Below, one piece after another: positions 42,158 to 47,133 of a DNA stretch of 64,000 nt. Under the pieces are notes generated by a model that saw nothing but the letters and a program-made list of their open reading frames with translations, was not told the DNA's origin and ran no database searches. The stretch lies in the NCBI GenBank assembly GCA_964016885.1, contig OZ024741.1, forward strand, positions 366,234,001 to 366,298,000, read 5' to 3'. This stretch comes from Eledone cirrhosa (lineage: Eukaryota). The position numbers and the translations under genes were made by a program. How positions within the stretch are numbered: position 1 is the stretch's first letter; each line of letters starts with the position of its first letter.

Positions 42158-42279
42158 TCCAAACAATTGTTTCATTATAAGTTTTTTACAAGTTGGGAGA
42201 ATGTGTCCGGTTTATGTAGAAGTCTGCATATTTTTCTGTAAGAACATATGCAGGTGAGCACTTATAAATCATCAGTGGA
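42158..42279 (-). ncRNA. Hammerhead, family F, 95-nt branched stem II
   Basis: TCCA CTGATGA [tttataag...cttataat] GAAA CAATTG TT TGGA. Confidence 0.85.
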
Positions 42280-42543
42280 TACCCGTCAAACATTGATATG
42301 AGAAAAAATGTCTTACCGCAGTTAGTTTTCGCATCATAATGACCGCCAAATTTGAAATTCCAGCAGTCTCAGAATGAGGAATTTCACAGCGTCACGAAGC
42401 GGAAAAGGGAGGCAATCGCGAAACACAAGGAAGTAAAATAATTTACACGTGGGTCAATTAGTTTTTTCAACAATTTTAACCCTGTATATATATATATAGT
42501 GACGAAACATAAGTCAATTGCATGAAATAATAATCCTTTATTT

Positions 42544-42599
42544 ACTGCTATATATATTTCGATGATAGCCAATGAATGGCTATGACCTCATCAGGCAGT
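42544..42599 (-). ncRNA. Type I hammerhead ribozyme, family G, intact core, in a PLE 3' end (42498-42818)
   Basis: ACTGC CTGATGA GGTcATAGCCA ttcat TGGCTATcATC GAAA TATATA TA GCAGT. An upstream frame ends ..PDGLN, as PLE endonucleases often do. Confidence 0.9.
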
Positions 42600-43673
42600 T
42601 AGTCAGTTCTTAGATATGCCAGCTCTGTGTTTATAGTGTTGATGGTATCAGAGCCTTGGGACATATGAGCTTGTTAGGAATAATTTAATGTTGTCAGCAG
42701 GAATAGTCTTGATTCTCATTGGTCAGTTTGTAGATGGTAGTAGGGTTGGTATTTGACCTCAAAGAGGCAGGTGGTGTTGTAAAGTTCAAACCGTCAGGCA
42801 AGATGACAATAGTTCCATATATATATATATATATATATATATATATATATATATATATATATATAATATTTTTGTGCGTGAGTGTGTAGGCAATATCTGC
42901 TAAATTCTCTGTCGTTGCATATCTACATTCGAGATTTATTTTTTCTCTTAATACATATGTATATATCTGTATATAGTTAGAACTCTAGAAATGTGTATAT
43001 ATATATATATATATATATACATATATATATATGTGCGTGTGTGTGTGTGTGTGTGTGTGTGAGTGTGTGTGTGTGTGTGTGTGTGTGTGTGAGTGTGTGT
43101 GTGGGGGGGGGGGCATTTCAAGCGTTAATATAATACATTCCTTTCATATACTGTACCGATTGTGTTGTTATATCTGTTTACCAATTACACCCATATATAT
43201 GTATATAACGCAATTATTCTGTGACAGTCGGTGGGGGCGACTCATTATGTGTTTATCGTGAAAGAAAGAAATGTGACCGTTATAAACTAAATTAACTGTA
43301 AAATTAAATAGGTCCGTGCAATTGAGTATCATTCGCATGTGAAAAATATGATGTTCCTCTTTCATTCATTGGTTTATATGGATTGGCCGAAATCCCCTCG
43401 AGAGACGATGGTATTTCAGTTTATATTATATATGTATATATATATACATATACATATAAATATATATATGTATACACACATATATACATATATATAAAGA
43501 TATATACACATATATATATATATACTATATACATATTTGTATGTATGTATATATACATATATATATATATACATATATATATAAATATATATATATATAC
43601 ATATATATATATACACATATATATATATACATATATATACATATATATATATATAAATATATATATATATACA

Positions 43674-44121
43674 TACGATATTAAATAAATGGAAACTATA
43701 TTTATAACACCATATTTATTTCATTATATATATTTCAGGGATATCATATTAAAAATATGTTATGCCTTCTTCAGACAAAATAAAATATAAACAGTCTTAT
43801 AAATAGATAGATTCGACATACCTTTCAACTTCGACTTCTATTTGAAAAGTTGATTCAACTTTTCAAATAGAAGTCGAAGTTGAAAGGTATGTCGAATCTA
43901 TCTATTTATAAGACTGTTTATATTTTATTTTGTCTGAAGAAGGCATAACATATTTTTAATATGATATCCCTGAAATATATATAATGAAATAAATATGGTG
44001 TTATAAATATAGTTTCCATTTATTTAATATCGTAAATATACTCCAAATACTTGTTGAGTGCTTTTATATCAGTTATAAATATTTACTCGTTGTTAACCCA
44101 ACAATTTAAATAAAACTTTGC
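43674..44121 (+). mobile_element. Perfect 361-bp palindrome (180-bp arms) plus 3' tail; pLTR family H with an HHR in each arm
   Basis: Centre at 43854. HHR at 43926-43991: TATTTTGT CTGAAGA agg..cct GAAA TATATA TA ATGAAATA; mirror copy at 43717-43782. Confidence 0.88.
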
Positions 44122-44345
44122 ATATATATATACATATATATATACATATATATACATATATATATATATATATATATATATTGGAAATTGGAATAAATGC
44201 TCTGAAATAGCGATATATATGTGAATATAGACATAGAATATTCGAGAATATTCTGTATGTTTATAATAAACATTTTGAAGACCTAATCGCTATAGAATAG
44301 AATACGTCACGTATTACAATTAGATTCTCGATAAAAGCAAGGGAA

Positions 44346-44388
44346 GTAATCTACGCGTTTCATTCTCGTTAGAAATCATCAGGACTAC
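44346..44388 (-). ncRNA. Minimal type I hammerhead, family I, copy 1
   Basis: GTAGTC CTGATGA tTTCT aacg AGAAt GAAA CGCG TA GATTAC. Confidence 0.9.
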
Positions 44389-44655
44389 ATATCCAGTGCT
44401 TTTATCGAGAATGACACAGCTAGAGACTTATAGAATACTTAGCTGTGTACAGGAACTGGTTTGAAAGAGCGGTTGCCGGTCCGGCAGAAATTGGAAATTG
44501 GAATAAATGCTCTGAAATAGCGATATATATGTGAATATAGACATAGAATATTCGAGAATATTCTGTATGTTTATAATAAACATTTTGAAGACCTAATCGC
44601 TATAGAATAGAATACGTCACGTATTACAATTAGATTCTCGATAAAAGCAAGGGAA

Positions 44656-44698
44656 GTAATCTACGCGTTTCATTCTCGTTAGAAATCATCAGGACTAC
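44656..44698 (-). ncRNA. Minimal type I hammerhead, family I, copy 2
   Basis: Same as copy 1, offset by 310. Confidence 0.9.
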
Positions 44699-44965
44699 AT
44701 ATCCAGTGCTTTTATCGAGAATGACACAGCTAGAGACTTATAGAATACTTAGCTGTGTACAGGAACTGGTTTGAAAGAGCGGTTGCCGGTCCGGCAGAAA
44801 TTGGAAATTGGAATAAATGCTCTGAAATAGCGATATATATGTGAATATAGACATAGAATATTCGAGAATATTCTGTATGTTTATAATAAACATTTTGAAG
44901 ACCTAATCGCTATAGAATAGAATACGTCACGTATTACAATTAGATTCTCGATAAAAGCAAGGGAA

Positions 44966-45007
44966 GTAATCTACGCGTTTCATTCTCGTTAGAAATCATC
45001 AGGACTA
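44966..45007 (-). ncRNA. Minimal type I hammerhead, family I, copy 3 (array boundary at stem I)
   Basis: Same as copy 1, offset by 620; merges into (TA)n. Confidence 0.85.
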
Positions 45008-46613
45008 TATATATATATATATATATATATATATATATATATACATATATATATATATATATATATATATATACATATATATATATATATATATATATAT
45101 ATATATATATATATATATATATATATATATAACGAAGGAAATGTGGTAAGGAACCAGGTGGACCATAACGCACCAAAGTACTCAATACTTGAGGTAGTAG
45201 AGTGGGTAATATATATATATATATATATATATATATATATATATATATATATATATATATATATATATATATATATATATATATATATATATATACATAT
45301 ATATATACATATATATATATATACATATATATATACATATATATATATATATATATATATATATATATATATATATATATACAAATATATATATATATAT
45401 ACTATATACATATATATGTATATATGTATATATATATATATATATATATATATATATATATATATATATATATTTATTTATGAGGGTGATAAACTGTAAA
45501 ACTAGAGACGTAGTTTATAGCATACGATGTACAGAGGGTACTTGTAGAAACATGACAACAGCATACATAGTCGAGAAAGGTCGTAGCATAGGAGAAAGGA
45601 TAGACCAACACTGGGGGTGGGGGGATTAAAATGACGAAAAAACGGTTCAGTACTATACGAACACGCCAGACAACAACATGACGTTAACATTTACAACATA
45701 GAAATTAAAATAATATCTAAACATAGAAATGACCCAGCAGGTAGGCAAATCAGAGAGGCAAGCGAAATAGAACTTAGAAGGATAAAGTGAAACAAAAAAA
45801 TAGATGGAATAACAACAACATCCAAACAAACAATACTGACTTGACTTAAGAGAAATATAAATAAATATATACACAAGCACACTAACAACAAACACATATA
45901 AACACACACTAGTAAACTAAGATTGAATATAATAACCAAAACAGTCACCCAAACGCGAACACACACCAAACACTATACACACGCAAACGCAATGAACGAA
46001 AAAAACGAAGATAATACGTACGTATTTGTTTGTGTGTATTTATTTATTTATTTCTATTACTTCTGTATTGTATTTATTTACTTTGTTCTTAACTCTGTAG
46101 CGGAGATTCATTCGGTCTCCAAGTTAGAATTTTAGTCTACGACTTCTGCTATACCATTTACGTGGTTTTGTCTTTGCGTGCTATTGTTCTCCACGCTCCA
46201 CATATGACGTATTATCTTCGTTTTTTTCGTTCATTGCCAGAGAACGTCTCTATGAACCACCTAAGAGAACATTAGTCTACGACCTCTTTTATTCCATAAA
46301 CGTGGTTCTGTCTGCGCGTAATTGTTTTTCACCGCTCCTATTACTGACGTATTATATTCGTTTTTTCCCGTTCTTTGCCAGCGAACGTTTCCACGAACCA
46401 AAGTATCGTCTTCCTGTCTTCCTCCGGTTGCAACGTTTTTTGAAATATCCACTTCTGCGTTTACAGATTGACTTTGTTAGTTTCAGAAGATCCCGTTAAG
46501 GGTGAAAGTAACGATTCTTTGCTTAAACTTTAAACTGGGTCAATATATGCATATGTTTTTATATGTCTCTTGTGTTGAAAAGGAGGTCAAGTATGTTATA
46601 GATCACTAAATAG

Positions 46614-46662
46614 TTGGTCCGAAGAACCCAAACCTCGGTTTGGAGGAAACAATTGTAAGCAA
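46614..46662 (+). ncRNA. Hammerhead-like motif, family J, CCGAAGA core
   Basis: TTGgT CCGAAGA acCCAAACC tc GGTTTGGag GAAA CAATTG TA AgCAA. Confidence 0.65.
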
Positions 46663-47010
46663 ATAAATGATTTAAACTGAACTTTGATTATTGTAATCTC
46701 TCTCTCTCTCTCTCTCTCTCTATATATATATATATATATATATATATATATATATATATATATATATATATATATATATATATATATATATATATATATA
46801 TATATATATATATATATATATATATATATATATACAATACATAAACATAGAAAGCCTTAAGCGATACCAACTCCATCTCACTCAACAAACATTAGGATAT
46901 ACTTAAGTATTATCCCAATTTAGTGTTTGGGGTGCTAACTAATCAGTATTTCGTGGATAATTGGTTGTATTATTTTATATGAGACATTATTAAATAAATA
47001 TCTAATTTCT

Positions 47011-47133
47011 TCCAGACGGCCGTTTCGCTAAAAGATTTCTACAATTTAGGATAAATAATTTCCAGGTTATGTAGAAACTTGTATATAATCCATAGTTTTA
47101 TACACAAGCGGGCTCTTATATCTCATCAGTGGA
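47011..47133 (-). ncRNA. Hammerhead, family F, 96-nt branched stem II, GUC site
   Basis: TCCA CTGATGA [gatataaga...tcttttagc] GAAA CGGCCG TC TGGA. Confidence 0.88.

Follow-up and report, generated by a model that had tools for sequence, protein, structure and literature searches.

The window analysed in this report is a stretch of 64,000 nucleotides (nt) of the Eledone cirrhosa genome (assembly GCA_964016885.1, contig OZ024741.1, positions 366,234,001 to 366,298,000, forward strand). Our main finding is that two hammerhead ribozyme motifs in this window, both on its minus strand, belong to a non-coding mobile repeat, here called family F, in which selection across subfamilies maintains a hammerhead core together with a large branched stem II domain; family F is a new structural variant of the Penelope/retrozyme type I hammerheads. 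We hold with moderate confidence that it is a type I hammerhead in a Penelope-like repeat whose loop II has become a three-way junction, likely docked onto stem I by a pseudoknot, and that it likely cleaves itself as a dimer. The preliminary description of these motifs, made from the letters of the window alone, mentioned neither the pseudoknot, nor the mobile-element context, nor the occurrence of long stem II regions in many unrelated families.

Family F copies in the window and across the genome

Both window copies are 5'-truncated repeats whose 3' ends are joined to (TA)n. Their features are as follows.

41975-42484, minus strand: repeat copy 1, subfamily F3a, 5'-truncated, 3' end joined to (TA)n; 93.6% identity to positions 205-737 of the L032 unit
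42158-42279, minus strand: type I hammerhead motif, copy 1
42279-42276 (TCCA) and 42161-42158 (TGGA), minus strand: stem I, copy 1
42275-42269, minus strand: catalytic core CTGATGA (CUGAUGA), copy 1
42268-42174, minus strand: stem II domain (95-nt insert), copy 1, with a basal stem of 7-8 bp
42254-42223 and 42221-42184, minus strand: hairpins IIa and IIb of the copy 1 insert
42162-42173, minus strand: GAAA (42173-42170), palindromic stem III CAAUUG and GUU triplet, copy 1
between 42162 and 42161, minus strand: cut predicted from the hammerhead consensus, copy 1
42280-42284, minus strand: leader GGGTA, copy 1 (GGGCA in the subfamily), 5' strand of the predicted pseudoknot
42255-42260, minus strand: junction strand TGCTCA, copy 1 (TGCCCA in the subfamily), 3' strand of the predicted pseudoknot
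46835-47358, minus strand: repeat copy 2, subfamily F4, 5'-truncated, 3' end joined to (TA)n; 94.5% identity to positions 229-759 of the L020 unit
47011-47133, minus strand: type I hammerhead motif, copy 2, basal stem II decayed
47133-47130 (TCCA) and 47014-47011 (TGGA), minus strand: stem I, copy 2
47129-47123, minus strand: catalytic core CTGATGA, copy 2
47122-47027, minus strand: 96-nt insert, copy 2
between 47015 and 47014, minus strand: predicted cut, copy 2, with stem III CGGCCG and GUC triplet
47134-47138, minus strand: leader GGGCA, copy 2, complementary to GCCC at 47113-47110

When the window sequence was re-read, the elements first described in it were all found: a TCCA/TGGA stem I, CUGAUGA, GAAA and a 95- or 96-nt insert in the two copies, a stem III palindrome that is CAATTG in copy 1 and CGGCCG in copy 2, and the sequences quoted for hairpin 1 in each copy. 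The kept second helix and the three-way junction, which were part of the same description, hold across subfamilies, but each window copy shows private decay. In copy 1, helix IIb reads TTCTACA/TGTAAAA and has lost one pair, while basal stem II of copy 2 is broken (GATATAAG/CTTTTAGC, where subfamily members have GTTTATAAG/CTTATAAC), so that its junction does not close in a fold constrained to the hammerhead. Compared with shuffled sequences, the inserts of the two copies fold with z scores of -3.71 and -2.84, and the whole motifs with -1.35 and -3.16.

The source assembly measures 3.0 Gb and is rich in (TA)n. The family F core pattern has 2,719 exact matches in it and none in the reversed control, a lower bound on copy number, and DNA searches returned 1,755-4,158 first-look candidates per query. 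Units are 680-1,030 bp long and non-coding, with partial head-to-tail tandems among the copies (spacings mostly 675-1,031 bp) and a GC content of 35% in two units. Three units were searched for open reading frames (ORFs); none exceeded 57 amino acids, and these units lack the ORF with reverse transcriptase (RT) and GIY-YIG domains between pseudo-long terminal repeats (pseudo-LTRs) that characterizes an autonomous Penelope-like element (PLE). The 5' ends are variable, most copies being shorter than a unit and 5'-truncated, whereas the 3' end is fixed: in 127 of 131 cases it falls 178-190 nt beyond the predicted cut, and what follows is TA repeats (81 of the 131), the next unit (26) or other sequence (24). 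Head-to-tail joints were also present in three sequencing runs, in contigs from one sample of unspecified kind that are silent on expression; the core patterns had no match in viral and metagenome contigs.

The insertion marks of this non-coding repeat are Penelope-like: its tandems are partial, its 3' end is fixed and its targets are (TA)n. For PLEs, Craig 2021 describes partial tandems, truncation at the 5' end and a preference for (TA)n, and non-coding hammerhead tandems have been argued to be non-autonomous PLE derivatives (bioRxiv 10.64898/2026.07.22.740005). Non-coding head-to-tail hammerhead units, 5' truncation, a fixed 3' end and a microsatellite target, the marks of such a derivative or of a non-LTR retrozyme, are all found here.

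The youngest subfamily has 40 matches at 99-100% identity. Its members L242 and L316-L345 have a 707-bp unit, 98-99% identical, in which stem III has gained four bases, creating a new palindrome, GACGUC, inside the loop. At loci L136-L148, several contigs share a single family F insertion, present at about 12 places with identical flanks and apparently part of a larger duplicated unit.

Five helices kept by selection across subfamilies

Covariation was assessed within this one genome by shuffles and subfamily counts rather than by R-scape. In an alignment of 32 copies from five subfamilies, RNAalifold recovered stems I, II, IIa, IIb and III without guidance, with a pairing and covariation score above shuffles; the consensus places three helices around the core and leaves the ends open at stem I, which is the type I topology. 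In a set of 13 more diverse copies, 12 pairs had changed on both sides, compared to 5.7+/-1.6 in shuffles (0 of 500 reached this number) and to 1-3 when the partners were slid; two of the 12 are pseudoknot pairs, each from single copies.

The second test contrasts changes fixed in mobile subfamilies with mutations that followed insertion. The representatives of the eight subfamilies have 14 derived states in helices I, II, IIa, IIb and III; pairing survives in 12 of these, in 8 through change on both sides, compared to 29 of 102 private changes, counted in the 162 of 180 copies that belong to subfamilies of five or more (binomial p 1.4e-5). With an earlier set of representatives, two carrying private changes and one mis-parsed, 16 of 27 states kept pairing and 11 broke it (p 8e-4). 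The proposal that structure is conserved while sequence drifts is thus borne out by both the 13-copy shuffles and the subfamily count.

Both-sided changes were found in stems I, II and III. The core CUGANGA...GAAA, the A15.1-U16.1 pair and an NUH triplet are present in all eight representatives; the cleavable triplet is GUU, GUC or GUA in every subfamily, N7 and H17 being the only free core positions, and helix II has 7-8 bp throughout. Hairpin IIa accounts for most of the sequence drift. IIb and basal stem II have hardly changed: each shows a single compensatory change, found in the youngest subfamily. Hairpin IIa behaves as a scaffold that needs only to stay folded, and IIb, whose sequence is kept, is the better candidate for a protein or a second tertiary contact.

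A predicted pseudoknot and its alternatives

Directly 5' of stem I, a leader, GGGCA, is complementary to UGCCC, the first unpaired strand above basal stem II. Three G-C pairs of this helix occur in all eight subfamilies, followed by a C-G or U-G pair, with variation at the innermost and outermost pairs. When folding is constrained to the hammerhead, both strands stay unpaired in all 9 sequences folded. A leader-junction pseudoknot is likely in family F. Such complementarity also occurs elsewhere in the genome. Across the 12 long-insert families obtained from all fetched loci (F4 being merged into F, and one doubtful non-palindromic match dropped), a cognate leader-loop helix of at least 3.2 kcal/mol is predicted in 4, as opposed to 4 of 132 swapped pairings. 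The four helices differ in their letters (GGGCA/UGCCC, GAGAA/UUCUC, CAAGGA/UCUUUG and UGAGUUU/AAACUCG), with per-family p values of 0.006-0.023 against random genomic 12-mers and 0.012-0.098 against shuffles of the family's own loop. These four families have an unpaired segment above stem II, and most of the others fold as long continuous hairpins. In one of the four, family H, a pseudoknot pair is G-C in 1,299 matches, A-U in 28, A.C in 12 and G.U in 32, where about 2 A-U would be expected if the two positions were independent. The 28 A-U matches are identical and form one homogeneous subfamily, the A.C matches being scattered; the A-U state is one compensatory event that spread.

In the reading we favour, GGG(C) 5' of stem I would pair with (G)CCC 3' of basal stem II and replace the usual contact between loops I and II. 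Perreault 2011 (PMC3088659) showed that the loop-loop contact can give way to a helix joining the two stem regions, and that this helix is necessary for fast cleavage. If the same applies to family F, docking would require only the first strand of loop II, and the rest of the loop would be free to grow self-folding hairpins, which fits IIa. With a palindromic stem III, two neighbouring units could complete each other's active site, and dimer cleavage in tandem transcripts is expected because stem III is short as well as palindromic (Cervera 2014). Cutting would release unit RNAs of 680-1,030 nt, possibly circularised. An autonomous PLE would then supply the RT/endonuclease that copies them into (TA)n sites from a start point about 185 nt 3' of the cut.

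Copying of cut RNAs would be expected to leave an accumulation of 5' ends at the cut site. In subfamilies F2 and F3, 41 loci have (TA)4 joined within -3 to +5 of it: 11 start at the cut (starts 0 and +1 being indistinguishable, and two of the 11 possibly one duplicated locus), 5 at -2/-1 and 25 at +2 to +5. On the non-redundant (minus) strand, 18 loci fall in these 9 positions, compared to 19 in 22 upstream and 20 in 31 downstream control positions, a weak, 2-3-fold excess near the predicted cut.

Several observations weigh against this combination of docking and cleavage. In the 32-copy alignment, both-sided pair changes are not above shuffles (6 versus 5.6; 271 of 500). The predicted leader-loop contact covaries across families and once in family H, but in family F it is only conserved, and the subfamily-level compensatory change that we sought there was not found; the sole double change (L270) is private among its relatives. 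Copies without the leader GG amount to 36 matches, many of them truncations, and constitute no subfamily. The leader has a possible alternative partner in another conserved CCC, located in loop IIb, and the four pseudoknot families had been noticed ahead of the swap test. With pseudoknot energy left out, the minimum-energy structure of all 9 sequences is more stable than the hammerhead fold, by 2.7-12.8 kcal/mol, and in 6 of the 9 the leader-junction helix is instead a nested hairpin that traps the core. As for the 5' ends, counts at +4/+5, the start of 18 of the 41 loci, are inflated by microsatellite look-alikes; F4 (2 of 10 events) and F5 (0 of 4) show little or no excess, and an RT stalling at the structure would mimic it. 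In addition, of 30 copies chosen by their 3' part, about 18 of which are independent, 29 continue across the cut site, and the usual template is therefore uncut or circular, which matches an in vitro result for an Anolis element (Frangione 2024). Finally, family F bears no real resemblance to the RT family present in the window, whose hammerhead is a different one with a 31-nt insert.

Some of these points could be accommodated if the leader-junction helix were an off-switch, which we judge unlikely. It would form first during transcription and trap CUGAUGA, the 95-nt insert would delay stem II, and most transcripts would stay uncut for the RT. In those 6 of the 9 sequences the nested fold has the lowest energy and is more stable than the hammerhead by 3.6-12.8 kcal/mol; of two units folded as circles, one retains it. 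Most insertions span the cut site, and a stem II of 7-8 bp, long relative to the 4 bp of stem I, may strain a pseudoknot. The satellite satRPV is reportedly a precedent for an inhibitory pseudoknot. However, the innermost pair of the helix varies (A-U in only 4 of 8 subfamilies), as expected of a pseudoknot linker rather than of a hairpin, and the minimum fold of F4 and F5 keeps stems I and II. Moreover, helical contacts between stems I and II raise cleavage in the natural hammerheads tested (Perreault 2011, PMC3088659).

The near invariance of the IIb stem and of the motifs CUACAUAA, GG and CCC, while IIa drifts, lends itself to another interpretation, in line with the RT-binding or regulatory module suggested in the preliminary description: the insert, and above all IIb, would be a separate module binding the Penelope RT or a host protein, loop II being simply a site that tolerates it. 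A protein-binding region adjoining the hammerhead has been proposed for the Anolis element (Frangione 2024). This interpretation is compatible with docking and dimer cleavage and does not exclude them, but we give it little credence as the explanation of the domain: other families of the genome spread with unrelated inserts of 13-92 nt, some copies begin only downstream of the insert, and copying has its fixed start about 185 nt 3' of the cut, in a place where sequence is also conserved.

That the motif is a non-cleaving structural relic, with an insert expanded neutrally and kept folded only for RNA stability, is highly improbable: PLE hammerheads do cleave poorly in vitro (Cervera 2014, PMC4209133), 8 of 9 Xenopus retrozyme dimers failed to cleave (bioRxiv 10.64898/2026.07.22.740005) and position 10.1-11.1 is U.U in 5 of 8 subfamilies, but this mismatch is tolerated in active ribozymes (Perreault 2011, PMC3088659), all eight subfamilies keep the core letters and a cleavable GUH triplet, and there is the weak 5'-end excess at the cut.

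Known systems, descriptors and other hammerheads of the genome

Large loops and stem I-stem II pseudoknots are each already known separately. The satRPV (+) hammerhead, reportedly described by Song et al. in 1999, is said to combine an enlarged stem II region, a stem I-side pseudoknot and double-hammerhead cleavage, as in our reading of family F; it reportedly differs in being a plant viral satellite of type III topology, with a smaller insert and a pseudoknot that inhibits.

With the minimal type I PLE hammerheads (Cervera and de la Pena 2014, PMC4209133), family F shares a 4-bp stem I (4-5 bp in the minimal motif), a 7-8-bp stem II and a palindromic stem III, as well as the presence of many divergent families per genome, mostly as truncated dispersed copies. 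The palindrome is imperfect in F5 and has moved into the loop (GACGUC) in F6. Unlike these minimal motifs, whose loop II has 3-10 nt, family F has a branched loop II of about 80 nt, a predicted pseudoknot and a 3-bp stem III, and was not found beside an ORF. Nor does it have their conserved G10.1-C11.1 pair: the eight representatives show U.U (5), G-C (1), A-U (1) and G-U (1).

Non-LTR retrozymes (Cervera 2020, PMC7229834; bioRxiv 10.64898/2026.07.22.740005) likewise consist of head-to-tail non-coding units of low GC content with one type I hammerhead each, and are likely mobilised by PLE proteins. The units of family F (680-1,030 bp) are at or above the top of the retrozyme range (51-972 bp) and, in contrast to retrozymes, its copies are mostly 5'-truncated and shorter than a unit, lack the canonical loop 1-loop 2 motifs and are known here from DNA alone. 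A predicted helix of 4-7 bp joining stems I and II is common to family F and to the pseudoknot hammerheads of Perreault 2011 (PMC3088659), human C10orf118 among them, where about 40% of representatives were reported to have it. In those hammerheads stem II is short and the loops are small, whereas the family F strand belongs to a three-way junction that tops a stem of 7-8 bp and is part of a mobile animal repeat. The pistol-like PK hammerhead (Zhan 2024, PMC11300833) also has a hammerhead core and a pseudoknot; we rejected it as a model for family F, as there the pseudoknot replaces helix II, which here is intact and covaries. In the available literature we found no PLE or retrozyme hammerhead with a branched stem II region of roughly 95 nt; an earlier description may exist.

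The statement that standard descriptors would miss such a domain proved correct. The supplement of Cervera 2014 limits loop 2 to 3-10 nt, the descriptor of Craig 2021 allows a core spacer of up to 17 nt, and Craig 2021 reports eight Naiads with 'half cores' 35-50 nt apart; the blind spot is thus real. Rfam gave no hammerhead match in the whole window at the gathering score, nor in 41,900-47,400 at E up to 10, where only sub-threshold microsatellite and palindrome noise appeared. This miss is not specific to the insert, since short hammerheads in the same stretch were missed too. A generic descriptor applied to 800 kb of evenly spaced genome gave 43 hammerhead-like matches, versus 1 in reversed sequence, and 14 of the 43 (one doubtful) have inserts of 36-97 nt, which exceed the published limits. 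Long stem II regions are common in this genome and occur in many unrelated families. Two long-loop families alone, F and H, have 2,719 and 6,839 pattern matches, beyond the descriptors used to count PLE hammerheads.

We tentatively propose, as a possibility on balance doubtful, that a widespread but overlooked class of Penelope-type hammerheads, in which a leader-loop II pseudoknot frees loop II to bear 50-95 nt of folded cargo, makes up a sizeable share of the hammerheads of some animal genomes and accounts for part of the 'absence' or 'half cores' reported for Penelope clades such as Naiad. If so, loop II would be a natural add-on site, like those engineered into aptazymes. Reported hammerhead absences and the eight Naiad half cores can be re-tested by relaxing one parameter. 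At the bench, the question is whether the leader-loop II helix docks or silences a dimer-dependent hammerhead, and how large a cargo a natural loop II can bear; the near-identical young subfamily is a suitable substrate.

Young Penelope-type RT ORFs are abundant in the genome (150 scored matches at 94-100%), and we take their clade to be Neptune-like. No autonomous partner of family F was found, one ORF-bearing family having been examined in depth among 42,295 first-look RT candidates; comparison of family F with 25 loci of that family gave only short AT-rich matches. Full Penelope-type ORFs of 700-780 amino acids, 95-98% identical, occur elsewhere in the genome at L301-L314, with a 31-nt-insert hammerhead about 210 nt ahead of the ORF, and Pfam gave no curated match for these ORFs. 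The window contains pieces of Penelope-type RT/GIY-YIG ORFs at 63339-63998 (+), 1748-2452 (+), 43553-44181 and 62624-63067, and the inverted pair at 43553-44181 is the terminal repeat of the L301-L314 family. ORF fragments that presumably belong to non-LTR retrotransposons, judging from their motifs, lie on both strands at 9677-14533 and 21277-22684.

Family H (L039, L194, L198, L304, L308, L376-L411) has a loop II domain of 47-55 nt in tandem units of about 520-570 bp, with strong stem II covariation and the constant single strands UUCUC and UUUAUYCC. Two further families, with inserts of 48-54 nt, show leader-loop II complementarity of 6-7 bp (L064:832(+), L310 and L333; L057:2887(+)). When the window was searched with the family F covariance model, both copies were found together with an unrelated long-stem family at 4211-4345 (minus strand; loci L151-L180). 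This type I family has a 78-nt stem II that forms one long irregular hairpin without a leader pseudoknot; its window copy has a mutated core, CCGAGGA, and relatives with 79- and 82-nt forms occur at L256 and L199. Between the two family F copies, at 44180-45012 (minus strand), lies a tandem of 2.7 units of 310 bp, more than 99% identical, with short-stem type I hammerheads at 44382, 44692 and 45002; the array is compact and retrozyme-like. Other families contribute hammerhead-like cores, with inserts of 14, 36 and 13 nt, at 17675 (-), 18366 (-), 20121 (+) and 56013 (+).

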